Below, one piece after another: positions 13,303-31,923 of a stretch of 64,000 nucleotides of DNA. Location of the stretch: positions 3,095 to 67,094 of the forward strand of contig CAYYPI010000002.1 of NCBI GenBank assembly GCA_964473565.1, in the 5' to 3' direction. Numbering within the stretch: the stretch's first letter is position 1; each line of letters begins with the position of its first letter. The stretch is from an uncultured Gammaproteobacteria bacterium. Lineage in GTDB: Bacteria; Patescibacteriota; Patescibacteriia; Patescibacteriales; UBA12465. A model generated the notes under the pieces. It worked only from the letters and a program-made list of their open reading frames with translations, made no database searches and was not told the DNA's origin. Made by a program: the position numbers and the translations under genes.

Positions 13303-13737
13303 ATGTATTTAATATTAATCACTCCAATTATAGCTGCTGGTTTAGCTCAGCTAATTAAACAATTTACTGTCAAAAAACACCGTTTCAAGTTTAAGAATTT
13401 CTTTGCTTACTCTGGTATGCCTTCAGGTCACAGTAGTGTGGTTGTATCTCTAGCTACTATAATCGCCTTACAAGAAGGTCTAGACTCACCTGTATTTGCC
13501 ATGAGTACAGTTCTAGCTATACTCATTATCACTGATGCAATTGGTCTTAGAAGTTATTTAGGCAATCATGGTAAGATACTTAATGTTTTAGTTAAAGATT
13601 TGGATGAGGATGAATTTCTTGATAAAAAGTATCCTATACTAGTAGAAAAAATTGGTCACACTCCACTGCAAGTTCTGGCTGGTTCTGTTTTAGGTTTTGC
13701 TGTAAGTTTAGTAGCTTGGTTTATCTTTAGTGTATAA
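13303..13737 (+). CDS. DUF212 / acid-phosphatase-vanadium-haloperoxidase-related membrane protein
   Basis: YSGMPSGHSS motif and four hydrophobic segments. Only 2 nt after gyrB. Confidence 0.65.
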   Translation: MYLILITPIIAAGLAQLIKQFTVKKHRFKFKNFFAYSGMPSGHSSVVVSLATIIALQEGLDSPVFAMSTVLAILIITDAIGLRSYLGNHGKILNVLVKDLDEDEFLDKKYPILVEKIGHTPLQVLAGSVLGFAVSLVAWFIFSV

Positions 13738-13754
13738 ATAAAAAAGCAATAGAC

Positions 13755-13792
13755 ATAAAAAAATAGCAAGTTATTTACTTGCTATTTTTTTA
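13755..13792. terminator. bidirectional terminator between the convergent 13303 gene and eno
   Basis: AATAGCAAGT / ACTTGCTATT stem flanked by an A-run and a T-run. Confidence 0.7.
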
Positions 13793-13820
13793 TCTATATC
13801 TTTCTTAATTTACTTCATCA

Positions 13821-15080
13821 TTATGAGTTTAATTCTTTCTCAATCTCCATTAATCTATTATATTTCACTAACCTTTCACCCCTAGATAAAGAACCAGCTT
13901 TAATATGCTCTGCCCCTGTAGCTACAGCTAAGTCAGCAATAAAATCATCAGTAGTTTCTCCAGAGCGATGAGAAGCCATAATTTCATAATCATGTTTTTG
14001 AGCTAATTTAATACAACTAATAGTTTCACTAAGAGTACCTACTTGATTAGGTTTAATTAGGATCGTATTAGCAGACTTTTTTTCTAAGCCCTTTCTAAGT
14101 CTTTTTTCATTGGTAACAAATAAATCATCTCCAACCAGCATTACTTCTGAACCAATCTGTTTATTTAATTCACTCCATCCTTCAAAATCATCTTGATCTA
14201 AAGGATCCTCAATAGAGACAAAAGGATACTTCTTTAACCATTCATAGTATAAGCCTGACAAGGTATCTTTAGTAAAGCTAGCATTATCAAGAGGAAAGAT
14301 ATATTTCTTTGTTTTTTTATCATACAACTCAGAAGAACCAACATCAGTTCCTAAACCAATATCAACTCCTGGTTCATAGCCTGCTTCTATTGTGGCCGCC
14401 AGGATTAATTCTAAAGCTTGAATACTAGAGTCAATATCAGGAGCATAACCACCTTCATTACCGATATCAGTATCATAATTAGCAGACTTTAAAACTTTTC
14501 CTAAAGTATGAAATATTTCAGCCCCTATACGTAATTTTTCTGCAAAAGTATTTTCTTTCAAAGGAACTATCATGAATTCCTGAAAATCTAAATTAGTGTC
14601 AGCATGAAGTCCTCCATTAAAAATATTAAAATAAGGTCTTGGTAATTTATATTTATGTTTAAATTTATAAGTTTTATATATGTATTGATATAAGCTCTGC
14701 TTCTTACTAAGAGCTGCTGCTCTAGCTACAGCTAAAGAAACTGATAAAATAGCATTTGCCCCCAACTTACTCTTATTATCTGTACCATCAAGTTTAATCA
14801 TTATTTTGTCAATTTCTTCTTGCTTGGTAACTAAGGTCCCTTTTAGTTTTTTACTTATAATTTCATTAACATTTTTAACAGCTTTTAAAACTCCTTTACC
14901 CTCATATCTGTCCTTATCATTATCTCTTAACTCATGTGCTTCATGTTCACCCGTAGAAGCTCCTGAAGGGACTGAAGCTTTCGCACTGAGACCTGAGCTT
15001 AAAGTTACCTTGGTTTCAACAGTGGGGTATCCGCGTGAATCAAGTATTTCTCTGGCTAAAATTGATTTTATTTTACTCAT
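13821..15080 (-). CDS. eno: enolase
   Basis: ILDSRGYPTVE, SHRSGETTDDFIADLAV and IKPNQVGTLSET. Confidence 0.95.
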   Translation of the reverse strand: MSKIKSILAREILDSRGYPTVETKVTLSSGLSAKASVPSGASTGEHEAHELRDNDKDRYEGKGVLKAVKNVNEIISKKLKGTLVTKQEEIDKIMIKLDGTDNKSKLGANAILSVSLAVARAAALSKKQSLYQYIYKTYKFKHKYKLPRPYFNIFNGGLHADTNLDFQEFMIVPLKENTFAEKLRIGAEIFHTLGKVLKSANYDTDIGNEGGYAPDIDSSIQALELILAATIEAGYEPGVDIGLGTDVGSSELYDKKTKKYIFPLDNASFTKDTLSGLYYEWLKKYPFVSIEDPLDQDDFEGWSELNKQIGSEVMLVGDDLFVTNEKRLRKGLEKKSANTILIKPNQVGTLSETISCIKLAQKHDYEIMASHRSGETTDDFIADLAVATGAEHIKAGSLSRGERLVKYNRLMEIEKELNS

Positions 15081-16267: not shown

Positions 16268-17434
16268 TTATAATTCTACTTTAATTATTTGTAATGAATT
16301 GTCCCTTAAGACAGTTAAATCAACCACTTCTCCACTTTTAAACTGAAACAAAGCTTCTGACAAGCTAAGATTTTTATCTAAATTTAAACTATTGATAGCT
16401 AATATTACATCTCCTTTTTTAAGGCCAGCTTTATCAGCATTAGAATCTTTTAGCACAGCTACGCCATTATCATCAGGATACACTAACGCGCCCACTTGTT
16501 TTTCAAAACCCATTTGAGCTGTTTGAGAGAGGCTGATGTAATTAACGCCCAAGCTAGGCAAAGCAAGTTCTTCTTGTTGAGGTTCGAGCAAGGCGTTAGT
16601 TATTAGAAATTCTGAACTAGACAAAGGTGTCCAAGTGCCATCCTCTAGAAAGGCTACTGCCTGGCCCTTAAAGTTAAAGAGCCAAGGTAACTCCATTATT
16701 TCTTGCATTTGTGGATATATTTCTATACTAGAGACAAAAGTATCACTATTTTGAACTAGCTTATTATTTTCTTCTAAACTTAAAAAATTACTAATTATCT
16801 GTTTTTGTGAGTTTAAAACTAAAAGTGATTGTCCAGAAATTAAATCTTGACTAGACATAATACTAATAGGTCTAAGATTTGAGGCTTCTTTTAAATGTAT
16901 TAAAGCTAAAGAGCTATTTTCAATATTAATCTGTTGATCAATTTCATAAATAACTCTATCTGAATTAATAGCTACAAAATTATCAGCTAGACTAACATCT
17001 GAATCTAAACTATTTTTATTAATTATTGCCCAGCCATCAGCACTAATAATCAAGCCTATAGTTTCGGGATTATTTAATTGATAAAAATTGTTTAAATTAG
17101 CTAAGCCATCTTCATTTCCTTCTTGATCAGATTCCAAATCAGTATTTATTGTATCTATTTTTTTTGTAAATATAGTTAACATGCTTTCTCTGATTTGATC
17201 AGCACTCTCCTTTACTTGCACATCTTGATTAACTACCACCTTCTTAGCATCTCGTATAACTAAATTAGATCTATTATAATCATTTAAATTAAGCTCACTA
17301 GTAAAAGCACCTGGATATATATCATTTAAGACATAAGCTCGAACAAATAGCATACCTAAAATACCACCTAAAATAGATATGATGATAACGAATACAATGA
17401 TAAGTAAGTTAATTTTTATAGTTTTATTTTTCAT
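16268..17434 (-). CDS. membrane-anchored PDZ-domain protein (no protease triad seen)
   Basis: N-terminal TM and a C-terminal PDZ-like GLKKGDVILAINS. No GxSGG serine motif. Confidence 0.55.
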   Translation of the reverse strand: MKNKTIKINLLIIVFVIIISILGGILGMLFVRAYVLNDIYPGAFTSELNLNDYNRSNLVIRDAKKVVVNQDVQVKESADQIRESMLTIFTKKIDTINTDLESDQEGNEDGLANLNNFYQLNNPETIGLIISADGWAIINKNSLDSDVSLADNFVAINSDRVIYEIDQQINIENSSLALIHLKEASNLRPISIMSSQDLISGQSLLVLNSQKQIISNFLSLEENNKLVQNSDTFVSSIEIYPQMQEIMELPWLFNFKGQAVAFLEDGTWTPLSSSEFLITNALLEPQQEELALPSLGVNYISLSQTAQMGFEKQVGALVYPDDNGVAVLKDSNADKAGLKKGDVILAINSLNLDKNLSLSEALFQFKSGEVVDLTVLRDNSLQIIKVEL

Positions 17435-21300: not shown

Positions 21301-22368
21301 CTATAAATTAGTATCGTTTCTTTTCTTTTTTTCCCACCAAGAAAAAAACACTACTAAAGATATCATAATACAAAAAAGAATAACTAACATATAAAACTTA
21401 CCTTGACTCTGTAGAAAGAGACCAGAAACACCAAAAGCTATAGCAAAGAAATAAAACACTAAAACTGCCTTTCTCTGCCCCCATCCTAAAGATAAAAAAC
21501 GATGATGCAGATGTTTATTATCAGCAGCTTTCATAGGATTCTTGCCTTTATATAACCTTCTTAAAATAGTCCAAGCTAAATCTAATATTGGTAAAGCTAA
21601 AACTAAAAGAGTGATAGCTATTTTACCTCCTGATATTATAGCTAAAATACCTAATAAAAAACCTAGAAGAAGAGATCCGCCCTCACCTAAAAATATCTTA
21701 GCAGGGTGCCAATTTAAAAGTAGAAAACCAGCGCTAGCAGCAGCTAATATTAAAGCAGCCAAACCAATGTCTGGTTGATAGTATTTAGTAGTGATAGTGA
21801 ATAGGAAAATAACTAAGGAACCAATAAGAGTAAGGCCTGAAACTAGGCCGTCTAAGCCATCTAGTAATTTAGTTGTATAAGTTATAGCTAAAAGCCAAAG
21901 AAATAGAAATATTTCTGACAAACTAATACTAGCTAATACTTGTATTTGTTTTAAGAATATAGAATCTCCTGTAGGTGTGCTTATTTTAGTTATTTCTACA
22001 CCTCCAGCTATAACTAAAATTACCGCTACTATTGGCCAAATAATTTGTTGCCAAGACTTAAGGTTATACTTGTCGTCTAAAAAACCACCAATCATAAGAA
22101 CTAGTGATCCAAAAAATACTCCTAGCCAATGATTAATATTTAATTCTCCTGATAATAAGTGTTCTTTAAATATAAAAGACACAAAAAAGAAGCTAATAAA
22201 TATAGCTATTCCTCCTAAAAGTGGTATTTTCCTTTTATGAATTTTTCTTCCTGGTGCTGGGTGATCAACAATTTTAAAATACAAAGCTAGTCTTCTGATA
22301 AGCTCTGTACTAAAAACGGTTAACACAAAAGTGAAAGAAAAAATTGTAATATATTGCCACCAAAGCAT
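21301..22368 (-). CDS. polyprenyl-phosphate N-acetylhexosamine-1-phosphate transferase (GT4, MraY/WecA family)
   Basis: About 10 TM helices with DDKYNL and LDGLDGL motifs. Confidence 0.8.
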   Translation of the reverse strand: MLWWQYITIFSFTFVLTVFSTELIRRLALYFKIVDHPAPGRKIHKRKIPLLGGIAIFISFFFVSFIFKEHLLSGELNINHWLGVFFGSLVLMIGGFLDDKYNLKSWQQIIWPIVAVILVIAGGVEITKISTPTGDSIFLKQIQVLASISLSEIFLFLWLLAITYTTKLLDGLDGLVSGLTLIGSLVIFLFTITTKYYQPDIGLAALILAAASAGFLLLNWHPAKIFLGEGGSLLLGFLLGILAIISGGKIAITLLVLALPILDLAWTILRRLYKGKNPMKAADNKHLHHRFLSLGWGQRKAVLVFYFFAIAFGVSGLFLQSQGKFYMLVILFCIMISLVVFFSWWEKKKRNDTNL

Positions 22369-22509: not shown

Positions 22510-23019
22510 CTAGCATTGTCTTCTTTTCATCTCAATAGTTGGAATATATTTATCTTTTATTATTTCTTTTTTTTCCTCCGAACTATCAATAACATGAAAA
22601 TCAAATTTCTTGTAGAAATTTATTGCTTTTTTATTATAACTAGCTACCTCCAAGCACACTTCTTCAGAATTTTTTAAAAATTCTAATGCTTCTTTTAGTA
22701 ATACTTTACCAAAACCTTGACCTTGATATTGAGGTAAAACGTAGGTTGCACCAACCTGGCTCTTTTCTTTGTCTTTAGAGACTGTAGAAAAACCAACAAT
22801 CTTATTATCTAGTTCCAGGACCCAACCACAAGCATCTTTTCCATATAACTCTATTTTCTTTTTAAGTTTATTAATAATTTTTTCTTCATCAGCAAACTTT
22901 TCAAGAATATCATTGTATTTAATTCCATGTTTTTCATTTGGATAAACATCTAACCAGGTTGTTTTTTGAACATCAAAAACACCTTTAGCGTCATTGATTG
23001 TTATTAATCTGACTTTCAT
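22510..23019 (-). CDS. GNAT N-acetyltransferase
   Basis: QGQGFGKVLL acetyl-CoA-binding motif. Confidence 0.8.
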   Translation of the reverse strand: MKVRLITINDAKGVFDVQKTTWLDVYPNEKHGIKYNDILEKFADEEKIINKLKKKIELYGKDACGWVLELDNKIVGFSTVSKDKEKSQVGATYVLPQYQGQGFGKVLLKEALEFLKNSEEVCLEVASYNKKAINFYKKFDFHVIDSSEEKKEIIKDKYIPTIEMKRRQC

Positions 23020-23113: not shown

Positions 23114-25507
23114 TTATTCTAATTCATCAAAATTATTATTAGATATTCCCAGTCCTAGATTTCTCATTACTTGGAAAGCATCTGCCGGTCTCCCAAGAAA
23201 ATATCTTTTACCATCGTTAGGATTTACATACCAAGCCTCACCACTGTTTTCAACTTGTAAAAAGATTTTTCCTTTTTGCTCCTTAGAAAAATTATCATCT
23301 AAACTTAATCTACTAGGACCATTAGGATTATAATTACTTTCTAATTCTATTTTATCATTATAGCCATCACCATCTGAATCAGGATTATTAGGGTTAGTAC
23401 CAACAGCGTCTTCAAATAAATCAGGTAGACCATCACCATCTGAGTCAGGGCCAGTTAAATTACTCAAGGCAACAGGAATTTTATTTAAATTATCATTAGT
23501 AATTCCCACTCCTTGTTCACGCATTACAGAAAAAGCATCATTAGGTCTACCTAGATAATACATTTTTTTACTGCTTGGATGGATATAAAAAGCTTCACCA
23601 TTATCCTCAACTTTAAGCATTATTTTACCCTTTAAACTATCATACATTGGATTATTTATAATATTTCTTTCTTGTAGATTATTATCAAGATTTAATTCTG
23701 TGTCCTCAAGAGATAGATAAGATAACATTTCATTAAATTTATTTAAAATATCATTATAAGTATCTGTATTATCACCATAAAAAGCCAAACTTACAACAAT
23801 ATATTTATCACCAGTCTTAATATAATAAAATCTATTTTGCTCTATTATTTCACCAGTACTTATAGATTTATCAACAGTATCTAGCATTATTATATCGTTT
23901 AGATTATTACCTAAATTATAATAAGCATCTTCTTTTAACACCTCCATTCTTAAATCATAGTTACTTGTTATATTATTATTTTCTTTTACCTCTTGCTTTT
24001 TATGAACTAAAAATTCATCATTATTCAAGCTTTTTGTATTATCATCAGTTTTTTCAATATTAATATCAACAAATGCAGATTTATTTTGCTTATGAGTTAT
24101 GAATAAAGGGTGAGACTTGGAATTACGATCAAGTAAAACCCAGTCATTTTTAAGATTAATATTAAATTTTGGATTATCTTGGCTATACTCCTTTTTTTCA
24201 GAATAAGTTCCTGAATCTATTAGAACTATAGAATTTACAATATCATCTATTATACTTTTATCTTTATCATTTTCCCCATAATCATACAGAACTTTTAGTA
24301 GATAGTTTTCAACAGGAATATAATAAAAATTATGTTGTTCACCAGCTATTGAAAGGATAACTTTTTTAGCTTGATATCCATTTATTAATACATCCTCATT
24401 TTTTACAATTGTTGCCATAGAATTTAAAAATAGCAAGTCTCTTTTAATGCTTGACTCCACAATATCAGTGCCAACTTCATAAGGAAATTTAACATTAGTT
24501 ATTGAGATAATACCGCCTTGATCATCGCTTTTCTTATCAATTGACAACGTCACCTCATCTTCATGTGTAAAATCCCAATCTTCTGGTTTAGTTATTTTGT
24601 AGACCGGCTCATTATTAATAAATTCATTATTATTTTTTATATTAATAATTTTTTTAGCCAAATCTTCAAGTCTAGTTGTTAGGGAGCTGGACTGTGGATT
24701 TTTAGCAATATTTGAATTAATCCAACTATTTAGCGAATTAGCACTAATTATATAACCTAAACTACCAAGAGTGTCAGAATGAGAACTACTAGTTATACCA
24801 ATAACTCCTGCCTTAGAATCTATAGCTGCTCCGCCTGAGCTACCATAAGACATAACTGCATCAGTTTTTAGCCAGCTTTTATTATATTTATTCTCTTTAC
24901 CGCTTAATACTCCTTTAGTTATTGTTATTGTATTACCCCCAATTGAAGGGTAGCCTAAAACTGTGACTTCATCATTTACTGAGATAGTTTCTGAAGTATT
25001 TAGATTTAAATATGAAAAAGATTCTTTATTACTATAATTATCTATGTTTTGTATTTTTAACAAAGCAACATCTAAATCTTTATCACTAGCAATTAATTCT
25101 CCACTATATTTACATTCTGGCTCATTATTAATATCTTCTGTTAAGCAAATCATATAAGAAGCTTCTTTCTCTGTACTATCAAAATCATCTTCCAGTGTGA
25201 CTACATGGTGGTTAGTTAATACAGTACCTTTTGAATCTATTATTACACCCGAACCAGTTGAAAAAAGACTCAACTCATTATCAACATTTAAGCTATAAGA
25301 TTTTATTTTTACTATTGCTTTATGAGCATCAGCTTTAGGTAGATCACTTACATCTGTAATAATTTCATTATTTGAATCAGAAACAATGTTAAAAGAAGTT
25401 GATGTAAATATGTCTTGAGCGGCCTGTATGTATTTATTTGGCACAAAAAAAGATATTAAAATAAGACACGATAACATTAAAAAATAAAATGGTTTTAGTT
25501 TTTTCAT
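23114..25507 (-). CDS. secreted trypsin-like serine protease (S1 family) with Ca-binding-type DxDxDG repeats and two ~50-aa repeat modules at the C-terminus
   Basis: Signal peptide. Triad context TNHHVV, DVALLKI and YGSSGGA. DSDGDGLPD and DSDGDGYND repeats. Modules GKIMLKVEDNGEAFYIHP... and GKIFLQVENSGEAWYVNP... Confidence 0.75.
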   Translation of the reverse strand: MKKLKPFYFLMLSCLILISFFVPNKYIQAAQDIFTSTSFNIVSDSNNEIITDVSDLPKADAHKAIVKIKSYSLNVDNELSLFSTGSGVIIDSKGTVLTNHHVVTLEDDFDSTEKEASYMICLTEDINNEPECKYSGELIASDKDLDVALLKIQNIDNYSNKESFSYLNLNTSETISVNDEVTVLGYPSIGGNTITITKGVLSGKENKYNKSWLKTDAVMSYGSSGGAAIDSKAGVIGITSSSHSDTLGSLGYIISANSLNSWINSNIAKNPQSSSLTTRLEDLAKKIINIKNNNEFINNEPVYKITKPEDWDFTHEDEVTLSIDKKSDDQGGIISITNVKFPYEVGTDIVESSIKRDLLFLNSMATIVKNEDVLINGYQAKKVILSIAGEQHNFYYIPVENYLLKVLYDYGENDKDKSIIDDIVNSIVLIDSGTYSEKKEYSQDNPKFNINLKNDWVLLDRNSKSHPLFITHKQNKSAFVDINIEKTDDNTKSLNNDEFLVHKKQEVKENNNITSNYDLRMEVLKEDAYYNLGNNLNDIIMLDTVDKSISTGEIIEQNRFYYIKTGDKYIVVSLAFYGDNTDTYNDILNKFNEMLSYLSLEDTELNLDNNLQERNIINNPMYDSLKGKIMLKVEDNGEAFYIHPSSKKMYYLGRPNDAFSVMREQGVGITNDNLNKIPVALSNLTGPDSDGDGLPDLFEDAVGTNPNNPDSDGDGYNDKIELESNYNPNGPSRLSLDDNFSKEQKGKIFLQVENSGEAWYVNPNDGKRYFLGRPADAFQVMRNLGLGISNNNFDELE

Positions 25508-25555
25508 AAGTTTTTTTTAAACATTGTTAATAAATATATTAAAGATAATTTTAAA

Positions 25556-26038
25556 TTATTTTAATGCTTCATTTAAACAATCCGTTTTGCTATTAAAATT
25601 ATTGCCATTAAAACTAATTATTCTTATATTAGGATCTTCAGGCGAAATTGTAGAAATAGAATCAACACAGTAAATAAGTTTTTCATTAATTGCTTTTACT
25701 TTAATCACATAATTATCATTGGTAGTAAAAATCATATGCTCTGCATTTGCTTTATTATAAGGTTCCTTTTCAGTAAGTGTGTCAATTCTTCTATTATTAA
25801 GATCATTTTCATAGAAACCATCAAAAGAATTATTTTTCTGACCCCAATCTTGTAAAATATCCCTTAAGCTGAATGTAACAACTTTTAAATTGACATCTTT
25901 TATCTTATCTTGATTAGATTTTAACTCCTCTGAATAATAATCTTTCATTTGATCAAACTGAAAATATATATACAACTTAACCCCGACACCCACAAGAACA
26001 ATAACAGTAATTATAATTAATATTTTTTTTAAACTCAT
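25556..26038 (-). CDS. membrane-anchored hypothetical protein
   Basis: 160 aa with a single N-terminal TM. Lies between the Clp-like ATPase and the protease. Confidence 0.5.
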   Translation of the reverse strand: MSLKKILIIITVIVLVGVGVKLYIYFQFDQMKDYYSEELKSNQDKIKDVNLKVVTFSLRDILQDWGQKNNSFDGFYENDLNNRRIDTLTEKEPYNKANAEHMIFTTNDNYVIKVKAINEKLIYCVDSISTISPEDPNIRIISFNGNNFNSKTDCLNEALK

Positions 26039-26062
26039 AATTTTGTTTTGTTTATTTTATTA

Positions 26063-28759
26063 TTATAATTGTCTGCCTTGTTTTACTTCTACTTTAGCCT
26101 GAGAGTTAATGTAAATAGTATCCCTTCTTCTAATCTTATCTTGTAATAACAAGTTGGCAATTTCGTTTTCCACTTTATCTTGTAGTAATCTTCTAAGTGG
26201 CCTAGCACCAAATTTAGGATCATAACCTTGCTGAGCAAGCTTTTCTACGCCACTTTCAGCATAATCAATATATATACCTTTTTGCTCTAAGCGCTTACCA
26301 ATCTTTTTAAGCATTAACTTGCAAATAGCTAAAACATTTTCAGGACTAAGTGGTTTAAAGACAATCACACCATCAAAACGATTGATTAATTCTGGTCTAA
26401 GAACTTTATTTAAATGTTCATCAATCAAAGCTTCTTTAATTATACTAATATCCACTTCTTTCTTTACTGCTTCTTGAATATATAAAGCACCAGCATTAGA
26501 GGTGGCAATAATAATTGAACTAGAAAAACTAATAGTTCTTCCTTGTCCATCAGTAAGTCTACCATCATCCATCATCTGTAAGAAAAGGTTTAAAATATCA
26601 GGATGAGCTTTTTCAATTTCATCAAAAAGTATTAAAGAAAAAGGCTTCTTCCTTACCGCTTCAGTTAGATAACCCAGAGTGCCATCACTATCCCCAATCA
26701 TCTTCTTAACACTATCAGGGTGCTGATACTCACTCATATCTAAACGGATCATGTACTTTTCATCACCAAAATATATATCACTAACAGCTTTAGCTAACTC
26801 TGTTTTACCTACACCAGTTGGACCCAAAAACAAGAAATTAGCAATTGGTCTATCAGTTTCTCTTACCTGTGTACGACTACGTCTTAAACTATTTGCTACT
26901 GCACTAACAGCTTCCTCTTGACCCACTAATCTAGCATGTATGTACTCTTCTAAATTGATAAGCTTATGAGTCTCATCTTGGGAGATCTGATCAAAAGGAA
27001 TACCTAATTCTTCACTTAAAACTCTAGAAACATCATTTTCTGTACAAACACAGTCTTTACCAGTGCTTTGGCACCTTTGATAAACTTGTCCAGCAGTTTT
27101 TCTTACTAAATTAATAGCTTTTTCTGGTAAAAACTTATTCTGAATATATTTATCACTAATTTTCACAGCTTTAGCAATAGCTTTATATGAAAAATATATA
27201 CCATAATGTGCTTCTAACTGATTAATTTTGCTCTCTGTCATGCAGATTGCCTGATCTATACTAGGCTCAGATACACCTACCGTACTTAGAATATTTCCTA
27301 AGGCTGAATTTTCTATATAGTTAGAATAATTAGCTCTTGTAACTGAACCAATAAAGTAAAGAGCTCTTTTATCTAAAGCATCAGCTAAAACCTCAGTTAA
27401 CTCTAAGCTCTCTTTGGAGCCAGAGCTAATTCCGCTTAAGTTTTCTATGTTTTCAATAAATAAGACAATATTTTTAGCTCTATTTATCTCATATGTACAG
27501 GTAAGGAGTCTTTGACTAGCTTCACTAGCACTAACACCACTGATAATTTTTGAAAGGTTAAGCTCTAATAATCTTTTATCTTGTAAAAATTTGGGCACCT
27601 CTTCTTTTACCATTAACTGCGCTAAGCCTTCAATGATAGTTCTCTTACCAACACCATATTCTCCTACTAAAATTGTGCCGGCATGTCCACTTTGCCAAGC
27701 TTGAAATATAGCTGAAAATTCTTTTTCCCTACCTACACAAAGCTCAAATTGATTGTATTTAGCTTTTAGAGTTAAGTCACTTGAAAAGCGGTTTAAAATT
27801 GGAGTAGCTACAGCGGTATATGATTTATTCATAGCTGAACCTGGCTTCAAGCGTGCTAATTTTCTTAACTCTTTTTTATTATTTTTAAATTTTTGATTAA
27901 TATAATGCCATTCAATAACATTTCTAAGTTTAGAGATATCTATTTTTAAATCATAAAGTATTTCTTCAATAATTTTATCTTTTTCAACTATAGGAATTAA
28001 AATATTCCATGGTTCTACTGCTTTTAATCTATACTCAGTAGCATTTAAATAAGCACTGATTAAGACTTGACGAGTTAAAGGGCTAACAGAAGAATTGCTT
28101 TGATTTTCTTCCTCTTGCTTAAGATGTCTTTTTAAAGTTGAGATTAGCTTTTTAGCATCTATATTTAATCGTGTGAAAATATTTTTTACCACCTCATCAC
28201 TTAAAAGTGACCAAAATAAATGTTTAGTAGTCGCTTGTCTTTGCCCTAATTTTCTAGATAAGAGATAAGCATCTTCCACAATCTTCACAGTTTTATCATT
28301 ATAAACTGTAGCAATATCTAAAGCCTCTTTTTTATTTTTCACTACAAGTCCAGTATTTGAAGTATCACCTTCCTTCCCTTTCTTGTATTTTATCTTTTCT
28401 TTTTTAGCTTTCTTTTCACTTTGTCTATAGATTATAAACATATCAAAAAACAAAGAGATCAAAAAAACTAATATCAACCAACTTTGATGCCTCCAAAACA
28501 TTAAAATCTCACTTGTGCTTTTATTAGTATCTGCACTAAATTCTAAGTAAAACCAATATATTAAAGCTAGCCACCCTAAAACAGCTAAAAAATAAAAGAT
28601 TATTAAAATAAGTTTATCTAAGCTCTTCTTAGTTCTTTTTAAGTATATGAAAGCGCGATTTAAAGGTTGTCCCCAAAATAATCTCTGACCTAAAAATATA
28701 TCTTCGTTTTCCGGTTGCTTGTCTTTATTAAAATTAGGTAGGAAATTGTTATCTGACAT
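26063..28759 (-). CDS. membrane-anchored Clp/Hsp100-family AAA+ ATPase, D1 degenerate and D2 intact
   Basis: Two N-terminal TM helices and Clp_N-like repeats. D1 Walker A is GEYGVGKRT and Walker B is VLFIENIEN (both non-canonical). D2 is canonical: [33 protein letters not shown]. No long M-domain. Confidence 0.8.
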   Translation of the reverse strand: MSDNNFLPNFNKDKQPENEDIFLGQRLFWGQPLNRAFIYLKRTKKSLDKLILIIFYFLAVLGWLALIYWFYLEFSADTNKSTSEILMFWRHQSWLILVFLISLFFDMFIIYRQSEKKAKKEKIKYKKGKEGDTSNTGLVVKNKKEALDIATVYNDKTVKIVEDAYLLSRKLGQRQATTKHLFWSLLSDEVVKNIFTRLNIDAKKLISTLKRHLKQEEENQSNSSVSPLTRQVLISAYLNATEYRLKAVEPWNILIPIVEKDKIIEEILYDLKIDISKLRNVIEWHYINQKFKNNKKELRKLARLKPGSAMNKSYTAVATPILNRFSSDLTLKAKYNQFELCVGREKEFSAIFQAWQSGHAGTILVGEYGVGKRTIIEGLAQLMVKEEVPKFLQDKRLLELNLSKIISGVSASEASQRLLTCTYEINRAKNIVLFIENIENLSGISSGSKESLELTEVLADALDKRALYFIGSVTRANYSNYIENSALGNILSTVGVSEPSIDQAICMTESKINQLEAHYGIYFSYKAIAKAVKISDKYIQNKFLPEKAINLVRKTAGQVYQRCQSTGKDCVCTENDVSRVLSEELGIPFDQISQDETHKLINLEEYIHARLVGQEEAVSAVANSLRRSRTQVRETDRPIANFLFLGPTGVGKTELAKAVSDIYFGDEKYMIRLDMSEYQHPDSVKKMIGDSDGTLGYLTEAVRKKPFSLILFDEIEKAHPDILNLFLQMMDDGRLTDGQGRTISFSSSIIIATSNAGALYIQEAVKKEVDISIIKEALIDEHLNKVLRPELINRFDGVIVFKPLSPENVLAICKLMLKKIGKRLEQKGIYIDYAESGVEKLAQQGYDPKFGARPLRRLLQDKVENEIANLLLQDKIRRRDTIYINSQAKVEVKQGRQL

Positions 28760-28762
28760 AAT

Positions 28763-29125
28763 TTATATTAATTGCAAAATAATAGCATACACTACTAAGA
28801 CTGGTATTAAAGCCCAAAAGAAAAATAATATTAAACAGAAAATAAAAATAAGTAATAAAATTATTCCTCTAAATATAACTTGCACTAAACGTATAAAAAA
28901 ACTGATTAATCTCCCACTAAAATCAGTTTGTCCGTACATGGGGATAAAAATATTTTTTAACCAAATCCAAACCCCTAAAGATGCGCTTTGCCAAGATAAA
29001 AAATTATACAAGCCCCTACCAAAACGTAACCAGCCTTGGCTGTACCACCAAATAGGAAAATACAAAAATTCCCAGATTATCTGAACAAATAGTTTAGGGC
29101 TAGCTGTAAGAGTTTTTATTTTCAT
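28763..29125 (-). CDS. small Trp-rich polytopic membrane protein
   Basis: 120 aa. Its stop is 4 nt before the Clp-like ATPase start, so the two are probably translationally linked. Confidence 0.5.
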   Translation of the reverse strand: MKIKTLTASPKLFVQIIWEFLYFPIWWYSQGWLRFGRGLYNFLSWQSASLGVWIWLKNIFIPMYGQTDFSGRLISFFIRLVQVIFRGIILLLIFIFCLILFFFWALIPVLVVYAIILQLI

Positions 29126-29177
29126 ATATATTTTAATTATAACATAAAAAGCAGTAATAATAAAAATAAAATAAGCA

Positions 29178-29206
29178 TTGACAAGTAATATATCTTTGAC
29201 TATAAT
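29178..29206 (+). promoter_or_regulatory. consensus sigma-70-type promoter of clpB
   Basis: TTGACA (29178-29183), a 17-nt spacer, then TATAAT (29201-29206). Confidence 0.75.
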
Positions 29207-29209
29207 GTA

Positions 29210-29236
29210 TTAGCACTCTAGAAAAGTGAGTGCTAA
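29210..29236 (+). promoter_or_regulatory. CIRCE element (HrcA operator)
   Basis: TTAGCACTC-tagaaaagt-GAGTGCTAA is a perfect match to the CIRCE consensus TTAGCACTC-N9-GAGTGCTAA. It starts 4 nt after the -10 box. Confidence 0.9.
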
Positions 29237-29265: not shown

Positions 29266-31923
29266 ATGGAAAATATGTTTAATAAATTTACCAATAAATC
29301 ACAAGAGGCTATCATTAATGCGCAAATGTTAGCTCAAGAAAATGGACAGGAAAATATTGAAGCCCTGCATCTTTTGGCTGCCTTAATACAACAGCAAGAA
29401 GGAGTAGTTAGGCCTATACTTGAAAAAATGAAAGTTGATCCTGATCAACTTGAGTATGAATCTTTAGACAAGCTTAATAACCTACCTAAAACTCATACTG
29501 ACAAACCTGATTACGGCAATATCAATACAGTTCAAGGAACTGGTGAGGTAGCTGCTATCTTAGAAAGAGCAAAAAAAGAATCTGAAGCATTACAAGACCA
29601 GTACATCTCTACAGAACATATACTTTTAGCTTTAATTGGTGTAAAGTCACCTGCTCAGAATTTATTACTTAAATACAAAATTAGCTATGAAAATGTATAT
29701 AAACTTTTAGATGAAGTTAGGGGTAAGCAAAAAGTGACTGATCCTGCTCCAGAGAAAAAATTCAGAATACTAGAAAAATATACTACCAATCTAACTGAAA
29801 TGGCTAGAACTAAAAAATTAGATCCTGTTATTGGAAGGGATACTGAAATTAGAAGGATTATGCAGGTATTACTTCGTAGGACAAAAAATAACCCTGTTCT
29901 AATTGGAGAAGCAGGAACTGGTAAAACAGCTATTGTTGAAGGTTTAGCACAAAGAATTATTAGCGGTGATGTACCAGAAAATCTTAAAAACAAAGAAATT
30001 GTAACACTTGATTTAGGTTCCCTTTTAGCTGGAGCAAAATTTAGAGGTGAGTTTGAAGAAAGATTAAAAGCTGTGCTTAAAGAAATTAAGAGTCAAGAAG
30101 GTAAAACCATCCTTTTTATTGACGAGCTACACACTTTAGTTGGTACTGGCGCTACTGAGGGCTCTATGGACGCATCCAATATGTTAAAACCAGCTTTAGC
30201 TAGGGGTGAGTTAAGAACTATAGGGGCTACTACCACTAAAGAATATCAAAAATATATTGAAAAAGATGCTGCTTTAGAAAGAAGGTTTCAACCAATAATG
30301 GTAGATGAGCCAAGTCATGAAGATGCTATTAACATTTTAAGAGGAATTAAAGAAAAATATGAAGTGCATCATGGTGTTCGTATTACTGATAATGCAGTTA
30401 AAGCTTCTGTTGAACTTTCTACTCGCTACATTAGTGACCGCTTCTTACCAGATAAAGCAGTGGATTTAATTGATGAAGCTACTTCAGCCTTACGCATGGA
30501 AATTGACTCTATGCCTGAAGAGTTAGATGAGCTAAAACGAGAAGTAGAAAAGCTAGAAATTGCTAAAGCCGGTTTAGAATCAGAGAAAAAACAAAATACT
30601 AATCAGTATAAAAAATTAAGAAAAGACTTAGAACAAGTACGAGAAAAAGCTAATCAACTAGAGCTACACTGGAAAAATGAAAAGAACATCATTGCTACCA
30701 TTAGAAATCATAAAAAGAAAATAGATAAATTAAAGATTCAAGCTGAGATAATACAAAGACGTGGTGATGACTTAACCGAGGTCGCTCGTATTAGATATGG
30801 AGAAATACCTGAATTAGAAAAAGAGGTTAAAAAAGAAGAAGCTAAGTTAATTAAAATACAAAAGAAAGGTCAGCATATATTAAAAGAAGAAATAGATGCA
30901 GAAGATATCGCAAAAGTTGTAGCTCGTTGGACAGGAGTACCAGTTAATAAAATGCTAGAGAGTGAAATAAAGAAGCTGGAAAAAGCCGAGACTGAACTAA
31001 AAAAACAAGTAGTAGGACAAGATGAAGCTATTGTTTCTGTTTCTAATGCCTTAAGAAGATCAAGAGCTGGAATTAATGAAGAACAAAAACCTATTGGCTC
31101 TTTCTTATTTGTTGGTCCAACTGGTGTTGGAAAAACTGAATTAGCTAAAGCTTTAGCTAAGTTCATGTTTAACAATGAAGATTCTTTACTTAGATTAGAT
31201 ATGAGTGAATTCATGGAAAAACATTCTGTGGCAAGACTTATAGGTTCACCTCCTGGCTATGTAGCTCATGATGAAGGTGGACAACTAACTGAAAAAGTAA
31301 GACGCAGACCGTATAGTGTAATACTTTTTGATGAAGTAGAAAAAGCTCACCCTGAAGTATTTAACATCTTATTACAAATCCTAGATGATGGTCATATGAC
31401 TGACTCTAAAGGAAGAAAAGTTAACTTCAAAAATACTATTATCATCATGACCTCTAATCTTGGTAATGAAGTAATTAAAGAATATTCTATTGGTTTCAAG
31501 GAAGCTGAAGCAGATGCTACTGAAGGTGAAGGTAGGGATAAAGAAATGAAAGAAAAGATAGATAACATCTTAAAAGAATTCTTTAAATTAGAATTTTTAA
31601 ATCGTATTGATGAAATTGTATTATTCAAGAGCTTGGACACCAAAACCCTAGCAAAGATTGTTGAATTAGAATTAAAGAAAGTAGAAAAGAGACTACATAA
31701 TAAAAATATTAGTATTAAGGTGAGCCAAAAAGTAAAGAAACTTTTAGCTGAAAAAGGGTTTGATATTACCTTTGGAGCAAGACCTCTTAAACGTTTAATT
31801 CAAACTATGATTTTAGATGAGTTAGCTATGGATATTATTGCTGGTAAAGTTAAAGAAGGTGACAAAGTTAGTATTGATGTAACAGAAAAGGATGATGATA
31901 AGGTTTCTCTGCAAGTTAAATAG
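29266..31923 (+). CDS. clpB: ClpB-type chaperone/disaggregase (two intact AAA+ modules, long M-domain, plus an IGF-containing loop)
   Basis: [25 protein letters not shown], an M-domain of about 125 aa with [24 protein letters not shown] and [11 protein letters not shown]. Start moved to ATG 29266 (or 29275) because the track's GTG at 29230 lies inside CIRCE. Confidence 0.9.

Follow-up and report, generated by a model that had tools for sequence, protein, structure and literature searches.

The 64,000-nucleotide stretch of contig CAYYPI010000002.1 analysed here (the window) carries four closely spaced genes on its minus strand, which we designate g1, TM-Clp, g3 and g4. They are predicted to encode a small tryptophan-rich membrane protein, a Clp/Hsp100-type ATPase with two N-terminal transmembrane (TM) helices, a protein with a single TM segment and a trypsin-like protease with a signal-like N-terminus. 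The locus is best explained as two unrelated units, namely a conserved core formed by g1 and the ATPase, and a strain-variable slot behind the ATPase gene; only g1 and the ATPase of the four genes belong together. Judging from its sequence, the ATPase probably acts as a membrane-tethered remodelling enzyme that is driven by its second AAA+ module (D2) and works with g1 independently of any protease. The original prediction, which regarded the four genes as a module coupling the ATPase to a secreted protease, does not hold in this central point.

Conservation of the g1-ATPase gene pair

The conservation of the locus was surveyed in one genome per species (GTDB) using a profile of the family-specific region of the first AAA+ module (D1), which yielded 485 ATPase loci confirmed by tblastn. 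The best 80 of the 485 loci were taken with 10-kb flanks for the synteny counts, and further close strains (L082 to L088) were compared outside these 80. Motif counts refer to 75 sequences of the ATPase family, while the alignment and the AlphaFold2 input comprised 76 sequences.

Of the 80 loci, 73 yielded a homologue of g1, and a profile search raised this number to 74; five of the seven loci originally lacking g1 represent contig ends. In 70 of the 80 loci g1 is the directly adjacent upstream gene of the ATPase on the same strand, and the gap between both genes has a median of 4 nucleotides (nt) across the surveyed loci. These counts support g1 as a conserved partner of the ATPase to which it is tightly and widely coupled.

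Since more than 100 full-length homologues were found for the ATPase and 103 for g1, both represent real genes and not chance open reading frames (ORFs). The ATPase homologues share 49-88% identity, have lengths of 860-930 amino acids and originate exclusively from Patescibacteria-type sources (Falkowbacteria, Paceibacteria and Parcubacteria). Every named source of the g1 homologues likewise belongs to the Patescibacteria. A search of 1.84 billion representative sequences with the g1 profile retrieved 543 clusters (50% identity) at E<=1e-3, nearly all of them stand-alone proteins of 115-130 amino acids.

The description of the individual genes in the original prediction was largely borne out. 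The ORF list confirms four minus-strand genes separated by 3, 24 and 48 nt, and no terminators were predicted between them in a scan of the window. With eight tryptophans among its 120 residues g1 is indeed tryptophan-rich, the ATPase combines domains of the Clp family with two N-terminal hydrophobic segments, and g3 has one N-terminal hydrophobic segment and appears to be signal-anchored. The surrounding window has a G+C content of about 30% and carries the genes of an ordinary chromosome, among them gyrB, dnaB, murA, purL, pgk, eno and tpiA.

Family assignment of the ATPase

According to the Pfam search the ATPase contains the domains AAA_2 (E=2.4e-51), ClpB_D2-small (E=1.4e-22), AAA_lid_9 (E=4.9e-12) and Clp_N (E=7.3e-8). 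Based on these tandem AAA+ modules and their accessory domains it is to be classified as a class-I Clp/Hsp100 protein, although two features usually taken as hallmarks of this class are missing, namely a catalytically active D1 and pore loops with aromatic residues. The solved structures nearest to it are ClpC and ClpB, both in the sequence search and in a Foldseek search with its AlphaFold2 model. This model (predicted local distance difference test score, pLDDT, 82) shows the hairpin helices followed by the N-domain, D1 and D2.

The protein fits none of the curated class-I families against which it was scored. It scored 530.7 bits against the ClpB model TIGR03346 (cut-off 1232.1), 466.9 bits against the ClpA model TIGR02639 (cut-off 993.15) and 425.6 bits against ClpV (cut-off 884.95), and thus remains below every curated equivalog cut-off (ClpA, ClpB, ClpC-like and ClpV) by about two-fold. 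No genes of a type VI secretion system were found beside the ATPase gene, its neighbours being clpB, g1, a gene for a WecA-like GT4 enzyme and a beta-propeller gene. Since a canonical clpB gene adjoins the locus, the ATPase represents an additional paralogue and not a replacement.

In eight of the 80 members (L010, L021, L028, L037, L047, L055, L061 and L067) the N-terminus carries two CxxCxGxG motifs, i.e. a zinc ribbon in the style of DnaJ and ClpE, which is located ahead of the TM hairpin. According to the model this ribbon is reduced to a beta-hairpin remnant in the protein encoded in the window. In the zinc-ribbon subclade g1 is less tightly linked to the ATPase; it either lies 96-1070 nt away or is missing from the locus. 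With Clp_N and, in some members, the zinc ribbon, the family seems to have kept elements for the binding of substrates or adaptors.

A membrane hairpin at the N-terminus

The hairpin topology was deduced from the hydropathy and conservation of the segments, from the charge bias and from the helices modelled by AlphaFold2. The segment corresponding to the first helix is hydrophobic in 71 and that corresponding to the second in 72 of the 75 family members, and the loop between them comprises 15-24 residues across the family. The net charge amounts to +4 before the hairpin, 0 between the helices and +5 behind it. In the alignment the residues G62, F99 and Y111 are invariant and L97, F108 and R112 are conserved to at least 90%, and AlphaFold2 predicts helices at residues 35-75 and 94-120. 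Sequence and model together indicate that the ATPase is anchored by a hairpin with both termini on the inner side (N-in/C-in) and with a specific packing of the helices.

The source databases label the homologues as "ATP-dependent Clp protease ATP-binding subunit ClpC", which would be in line with an ordinary soluble unfoldase of the ClpC/ClpA type whose start codon was mis-called, so that the TM segments would not be translated at all. However, 75 sequences show protein-level conservation of the N-terminal 120 residues, including the three invariant ones, from which it follows that the start codon was called correctly. Moreover, the ATPase ORF begins 3 nt past the stop codon of g1, and the protein misses the family cut-offs about two-fold and lacks both the ClpP-docking tripeptide and the M-domain. 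The probability of a soluble ClpC/ClpA is thus next to nil, in agreement with the membrane-embedded enzyme proposed originally.

A degenerate first and an intact second AAA+ module

D1 was delimited by alignment to the ClpB of the window and to ClpC of Bacillus subtilis. The glutamate position of its Walker B motif is occupied by asparagine in 70 and by aspartate in five of the 75 sequences, and never by glutamate. The arginine finger stretch "ERRF" is replaced by "GNIL" or similar sequences without any arginine at the finger positions. The Walker A lysine is kept, and the adjacent threonine or serine is found in only 30 of the 75 sequences. Furthermore, the KYRG pore loop is gone, SG[AVS][SDT][PA] being present in all 75 sequences and the pore-loop tyrosine in none. 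By these motifs D1 is predicted to form a catalytically dead, structural pseudo-ATPase ring which may have retained nucleotide binding.

In D2 the Walker A motif is identical in all 75 sequences, the DE of Walker B and the sensor-1 asparagine are conserved to about 100%, and 71-72 of the sequences have kept the arginine finger (RPELINRFD) and sensor-2 (GARPLRR). D2 is accordingly predicted, from its motifs, to be catalytically intact and the sole motor of the enzyme. Its pore loop is remodelled from GYVGY-EEGGQ to G-[T/S/A]-L-G-Y with a deletion of five residues; the tyrosine position of GYVG is taken by threonine (50), serine (10) or alanine (9) in the 75 sequences and never by an aromatic residue, and the tyrosine behind the second glycine of the loop is invariant.

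The loss of the catalytic motifs of D1 and of both pore-loop tyrosines might also be expected of a functionless clpB paralogue in decay. Such a decay is extremely unlikely, since the D2 motifs are about 100% conserved among 75 sequences which are only about 50% identical overall, a length of 860-930 residues has been kept in more than 100 homologues, and the pairing with g1 is maintained. The retention of the D2 motifs, of the full length and of the g1 pairing rather points to purifying selection on an active D2 enzyme.

Two further elements of well-studied relatives are missing. The distance between the D1 lid and the Walker A motif of D2 amounts to 96-101 residues in 75 of 75 sequences. An M-domain is absent, and in its position the alignment to the ClpB of the window contains a gap of about 122 columns. 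In this the ATPase departs from the build of ClpB, the disaggregase that is coupled to Hsp70.

The distance from SNAGA to LRPEL in D2 comprises exactly 28 residues, as originally noted, and a ClpP-docking tripeptide ([ILVM]G[FLM]) was found there in none of the 75 members. In the HMMER alignment to ClpC a deletion spans the VGF region of D2. Without the docking tripeptide the ATPase cannot feed ClpP, and its database name as ClpC, the ATP-binding subunit of a Clp protease, is misleading because these proteins cannot dock to ClpP. A missing IGF loop is not unusual in itself, since ClpB, Hsp104 and ClpV have no IGF loop either. With Escherichia coli ClpP as query, no ClpP-like ORF was detected in the window (64 kb) and the 80 loci, a search which covers too little sequence to be informative.

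The small membrane protein g1

No family matching g1 was found in Pfam and NCBIfam even at E<=1. The conserved polar core of the protein reads FPxWWY...WLKNIFxPMYGQxDxxGRxISFxxR. Its AlphaFold2 model (pLDDT 90.7) contains helices at residues 10-50, 52-57 and 69-119, so that the conserved loop connects two long helices. No matching fold was identified by Foldseek among the structures of the PDB, the best hit having an E-value of 5.

When the matches of the g1 profile were inspected for fusions with the ATPase, a single long one stood out. This protein of 414 residues from a high-GC organism (P0268) consists of a g1 domain joined to a sequence resembling the N-terminus and the TM hairpin of the ATPase. 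A true fusion would constitute Rosetta-stone evidence for an interaction of g1 with the ATPase. Since P0268 looks like a frameshifted or read-through ORF, and is more likely such an artefact than a true fusion, it was not counted as evidence.

Several spurious-looking ORFs of 83-121 residues are located antisense to g1 and the neighbouring clpB (28719-29084, plus strand; 29685-29993, 30870-31214 and 31392-31643, minus strand). They are almost certainly by-products of the AT-rich sequence.

Proposed function at the membrane

In the mechanism we favour, the hairpin tether would place the N-domain and both AAA+ rings at the cytoplasmic face of the membrane, where the ATPase would be held as a hexamer that is probably packed against g1. 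D1 would serve as scaffold ring and D2 as the only motor, whose hydrolysis of ATP would pull on or remodel membrane-embedded or membrane-proximal proteins. The outcome would be a protease-independent quality control of membrane proteins or remodelling of complexes. The domain architecture, the state of the motifs, the topology signals, the synteny and the accessory character of g3 and g4 are directly observed, whereas hexamer formation, a contact between g1 and the ATPase, the nature of the substrates and the direction in which the motor works are inferred.

Several observations weigh against such a role. The canonical aromatic pore-loop tyrosines are absent from both D1 and D2, which makes a processive threading of the ClpB/ClpX type doubtful; by analogy, the D2 motor may work in a non-threading, Torsin-like way. 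Two of the zinc-ribbon members (L010 and L061) lack g1 in the fetched locus. A link of the g1-ATPase pair to the heat-shock response, as the neighbourhood of clpB might suggest, is positional only, because the CIRCE operator (controlling inverted repeat of chaperone expression) is located on the clpB side and was not seen in loci without a neighbouring clpB, and because clpB and g1 of L008 have an intrinsic terminator and a further, separate promoter-like site between them. Finally, Patescibacteria keep long syntenic blocks, so that the neighbours other than g1 may reflect an inherited gene order.

The pair might even be a Patescibacteria-specific counterpart of the eukaryotic Torsin-LAP1 and Msp1 systems, consisting of a membrane-tethered Hsp100 hexamer with D1 as scaffold, D2 as motor, g1 as cofactor and non-aromatic pore loops, which would extract or remodel membrane proteins or complexes of envelope biosynthesis. 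This reading is rather doubtful; if true, it would represent a mode of action not yet described for bacterial Clp/Hsp100 proteins.

A full-text literature search found no description of a membrane-anchored Clp/Hsp100 protein, and the g1-ATPase pair, widespread as it is in hundreds of Patescibacteria, has apparently never been studied. With a conserved Hsp100 tethered to the membrane, this heavily studied family of chaperones would gain a new architectural class, marked by a dead D1, altered pore loops and a small membrane protein as dedicated partner in hundreds of species of Patescibacteria. The family would provide a natural test of how far AAA+ remodelling relies on aromatic pore loops and a second active ring. 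It furthermore points to a lineage-specific proteostasis of membrane or envelope in ultra-small bacteria with reduced genomes.

Comparison with known AAA+ systems

TM-Clp shares the order N-domain, D1, AAA_lid_9, D2 and D2-small with ClpB/Hsp104 and ClpC, and its D2 is about 40% identical to those of ClpB and ClpC. It differs from them in the two-helix anchor and the dead D1 as well as in the lack of the M-domain, of the pore-loop tyrosines and of the VGF/IGF loop.

The topology resembles that of FtsH, which also has two N-terminal TM helices in N-in/C-in orientation that hold its ATPase ring against the inner side of the membrane. The known route for the extraction of membrane proteins is FtsH (PMC7949044, PMC8943139). 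The resemblance is one of topology only, since FtsH joins one classical AAA module to a zinc protease of the M41 family and has a periplasmic domain of some 70 residues, whereas TM-Clp has two Clp-type modules, no match to Peptidase_M41 and an external loop of just 15-24 residues.

Torsin is related to Clp/Hsp100 proteins, associates with the membrane via an N-terminal hydrophobic region, lacks aromatic pore loops and has the membrane partners LAP1 and LULL1 (PMC5425593). TM-Clp is comparable to Torsin with LAP1/LULL1 in its membrane association, the missing aromatic pore loops and the membrane-protein partner, which is to be understood as an analogy and not as membership. Torsin, a eukaryotic protein of the endoplasmic reticulum and the nuclear envelope, has a single AAA module, resides in the lumen of the endoplasmic reticulum and receives its arginine finger from the cofactor. 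TM-Clp, by contrast, has two modules and its own D2 arginine finger and sensor-2, and g1 is a small helical protein that is not AAA-like.

As protease-independent AAA+ motors tethered to a membrane or located beside it, the eukaryotic remodellers Msp1/ATAD1 and Skd3/CLPB are similar in concept as well. Skd3, which uses a single ClpB-D2-like module as motor, matches the D2 of TM-Clp with E-values of about 1e-41 to 1e-37. However, neither Msp1 nor Skd3 has a pseudo-D1 ring. Both keep aromatic pore loops; Msp1 has one TM helix and Skd3 has ankyrin repeats.

A division of labour between the rings like that predicted for TM-Clp exists in the type-II AAA+ proteins Pex1/Pex6, NSF and p97, which combine a non-hydrolysing structural ring with a single motor ring (reviewed in PMC5447069). 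These proteins differ from TM-Clp as soluble, eukaryotic members of the classical AAA clade.

The variable slot with g3 and g4

The wider conserved gene order of the region comprises clpB (divergent), g1, the ATPase, the slot, GT4, a gene for a protein of 108 residues, dtd and the beta-propeller gene. In the window the slot is occupied by g3, g4 and a GNAT acetyltransferase gene (Table 1). Its contents were compared among strains whose ATPases are 86-88% identical to that of the window (L001, L002 and L082 to L088). The slot is empty in L086 to L088 and contains only an HD-domain gene for 272-275 residues in L001 and L002. In L082 to L084 a gene of this 272-residue type is accompanied by g3, g4, a gene for 165 residues and a DUF805 gene. 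In L085 (10555-11613) it is accompanied by a g3 which is cut short at residue 80 and adjoins a transposase gene (Transposase_mut), whereas strains with an identical ATPase protein hold five extra slot genes. In L003 and L004, which are less closely related (about 61-64% identity), an ORF for 93 residues or nothing is found in the slot. The GNAT protein of the window had no BLASTP match in the slots of L001 to L004 and L082 to L085. The slot between the ATPase and GT4 is a hypervariable hotspot at the strain level.

The slot HD protein of 272 residues (L082, 9716-10534; L001, 5869-6687), which directly follows the ATPase in several close relatives and is absent from the window, shows a faint signal of HD_4, a RelA/SpoT-like HD domain.

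No match to g3 was found in Pfam and NCBIfam even at E<=1, and no homologue in the 80 related loci. Among 5.8 billion proteins g3 retrieved only itself and one cluster of orthologues. Orthologues of g3 (74-76% identity) and g4 (77% identity) are present in L082 to L084, those of g4 in these three strains only. Accordingly, the two genes constitute a small accessory cassette moving as a pair within the hypervariable slot, and their juxtaposition with the ATPase is specific to this lineage. Because no terminator was predicted between the genes, a common transcript of the ATPase, g3 and g4 is quite plausible in this strain.

The g4 protein has a signal-like N-terminal segment, a Trypsin_2 domain at residues 85-238 (E=4.7e-23) with His, Asp and Ser in place, and a TSP3_bac match at residues 688-709. 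The latter lies between two copies of a C-terminal module of about 55 residues (repeat, TSP3 repeats, repeat), so that the signal-like segment, the S1 protease and the repeat modules ascribed to g4 in the original prediction could all be confirmed. A middle region of about 350 residues has no known fold. With the S1C-like trypsin fold, the His-Asp-Ser triad and the putative signal peptide g4 resembles HtrA/DegP. It differs from these proteases in the middle region and the C-terminus of repeats and TSP3, in the lack of a PDZ domain (none was found by Pfam) and in scores far below the cut-offs for HtrA, DegP, DegQ and DegS (72.8 versus 416.2 for the HtrA/DegP model TIGR02037, with lower scores for the other models).

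Matches to g4 were obtained in 30 of the 80 loci, all of them confined to residues 617-795, i.e. to the C-terminal repeat/TSP3 module; a trypsin domain linked to the ATPase was missing from all 80. Matches about 1.6 kb downstream of the ATPase, which had been considered as a conserved protease, align to the TSP3/repeat module only and were rejected.

This C-terminal module recurs in other secreted proteins of related genomes. Examples are a protein of 2487 residues encoded directly upstream of g1 in L029 (1200-8663) and a further occurrence in L080 (2-3052). Another example is a conserved TSP3 protein of about 240 residues, whose gene is located near 13400-14200 in about 25 loci, some genes beyond the ATPase. 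The module looks like a common one for surface display or anchoring.

Of the four-gene order, only the g1-ATPase part was recovered in relatives, g3 and the g4 protease being absent from the 80 loci as described. Since the slot contents vary, the order is not kept for g3 and g4, an outcome which the original prediction had itself named as speaking against it. The coupling of the ATPase to g3 and the putatively secreted protease is limited to L082 to L084 among the close strains and is absent from L001 to L004 and L086 to L088. That all four genes form one module, in which the ATPase and the small proteins cooperate with the trypsin-like protease in extraction, export or quality control, is therefore very unlikely. 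Their co-directional arrangement with short gaps and no predicted terminator would fit such a module, as would the presence of orthologues of both g3 and g4 behind the ATPase in L082 to L084. However, even there the 272-residue gene lies between the ATPase and g3/g4, and equally close strains lack the pair or carry a g3 disrupted beside a transposase. Outside this group g3 is an orphan. In addition, the ATPase is predicted to face the cytoplasm while the protease bears a signal peptide, and nothing in the locus bridges the two compartments.

Table 1. Positions of genes and sequence elements in the window.
Feature	Position	Strand	Description or basis
g1	28763-29125	minus	ORF, 120 amino acids
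TM-Clp ATPase	26063-28759	minus	ORF, 898 amino acids
Membrane hairpin of the ATPase	28427-28612	minus	TM1 residues 50-72, external loop of 20 residues, TM2 residues 93-111; hydropathy
Cytoplasmic Clp N-domain (predicted)	27848-28315	minus	Residues ~149-304; Clp_N match 164-213, E=7e-8; helical bundle in model
D1 AAA+ module, degenerate	27050-27802	minus	Alignment to ClpB of the window and B. subtilis ClpC
D1 Walker A	27638-27664	minus	GEYGVGKRT
D1 pore loop	27518-27544	minus	SGVSAS, without Tyr
D1 Walker B equivalent	within 27437-27466	minus	FIEN
D1 arginine finger region	27278-27304	minus	ALGNILSTV
D2 AAA+ module, intact	26081-26974	minus	
D2 Walker A	26798-26824	minus	
D2 pore loop	26660-26698	minus	IGDSDGTLGYLTE, remodelled
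D2 Walker B	26606-26632	minus	
D2 segment without ClpP-docking tripeptide	26375-26497	minus	
g3	25556-26038	minus	ORF, 160 amino acids
g4	23114-25507	minus	ORF, 797 amino acids
GNAT acetyltransferase	22510-23019	minus	169 amino acids; Acetyltransf_1, E=6e-17; third slot occupant
WecA-like GT4 membrane enzyme	21301-22368	minus	Glycos_transf_4; best NCBIfam match WecA, below cut-off
Control region between g1 and clpB	29157-29236		Three elements; promoter scan and regex
Promoter-like site for g1	29184-29157	minus	10/12; promoter scan
Sigma-70 promoter for clpB	29178-29206	plus	12/12; promoter scan
CIRCE/HrcA operator	29210-29236		TTAGCACTC-N9-GAGTGCTAA; regex scan, 0 mismatches
Canonical clpB, divergent from g1	29266-31923	plus	TIGR03346, 1187.3 bits; M-domain present

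The neighbouring clpB and the control region

A clpB or another Clp paralogue adjoins g1 in about 60 of the 80 loci, in about 41 of them divergently and in about 17 co-directionally. For the clpB of the window a GTG at 29230 was listed as start codon, which overlaps the CIRCE operator. Translation probably begins at the ATG at 29266 (MENMFNKFT) instead, since the orthologues of L002 and L082 start with MENMFNKFT as well.

The operator scan used the CIRCE consensus, and CIRCE was found upstream of clpB in at least 50 loci. In the window the -35 hexamers of the clpB promoter and of the promoter-like site for g1 overlap back to back, and the operator is located 26 nt upstream of the -35 site of g1. 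In the 15-17 co-directional loci an operon of clpB, g1 and the ATPase controlled by CIRCE was considered. The gaps of 58-195 nt, the clear terminator and promoter-like site in L008 and a promoter-like site between clpB and g1 in L005 do not support it.

Genes downstream of the slot

Of the 80 loci, 73 have a GT4 gene on the same strand at position +1 to +3 from the ATPase, frequently as two copies, and the gap to the ATPase has a median of 16 nt where both are directly adjacent. Beyond GT4 follow genes for envelope or secreted proteins (TSP3-repeat, beta-propeller and PDZ proteins) and then the glycolytic genes pgk, eno and tpiA.

By analogy with Torsin, the g1-ATPase pair could be a non-threading regulator or assembly factor of this WecA-like enzyme in the synthesis of envelope glycans, acting on its activity, assembly or turnover. 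The control of envelope synthesis by AAA+ proteins is familiar, as FtsH together with a membrane adaptor controls LpxC, and ClpCP controls MurAA. The frequent co-directional GT4 gene, the envelope-related genes beyond it and the lost aromatic pore loops, which would suit a non-threading mode as in Torsins, are consistent with such a function. However, the junction between the ATPase and GT4 takes up to five unrelated genes, a transposase and gaps of 122-315 nt, and this tolerance of insertions and wide gaps argues against an obligate coupling. The presence of glycolytic genes in the same block likewise suggests that the adjacency may be inherited gene order. A regulator of GT4 thus seems unlikely, and a remodelling ATPase that works with g1 is preferred.

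The same long syntenic block as the ATPase includes a gene (16268-17434, minus strand) for a conserved, membrane-anchored protein of 388 residues, in which only a C-terminal PDZ domain was recognised; the N-terminal 300 residues or so match no family.

Finally, a number of the surveyed records (L004 to L006, L010, L012, L077 and many CAY*/CAZ* records) are titled "uncultured Gammaproteobacteria bacterium ... binchicken" or "Bacillota bacterium". With their low G+C content, synteny and gene families of the Patescibacteria type, these labels look like placeholders or seem to be wrong.

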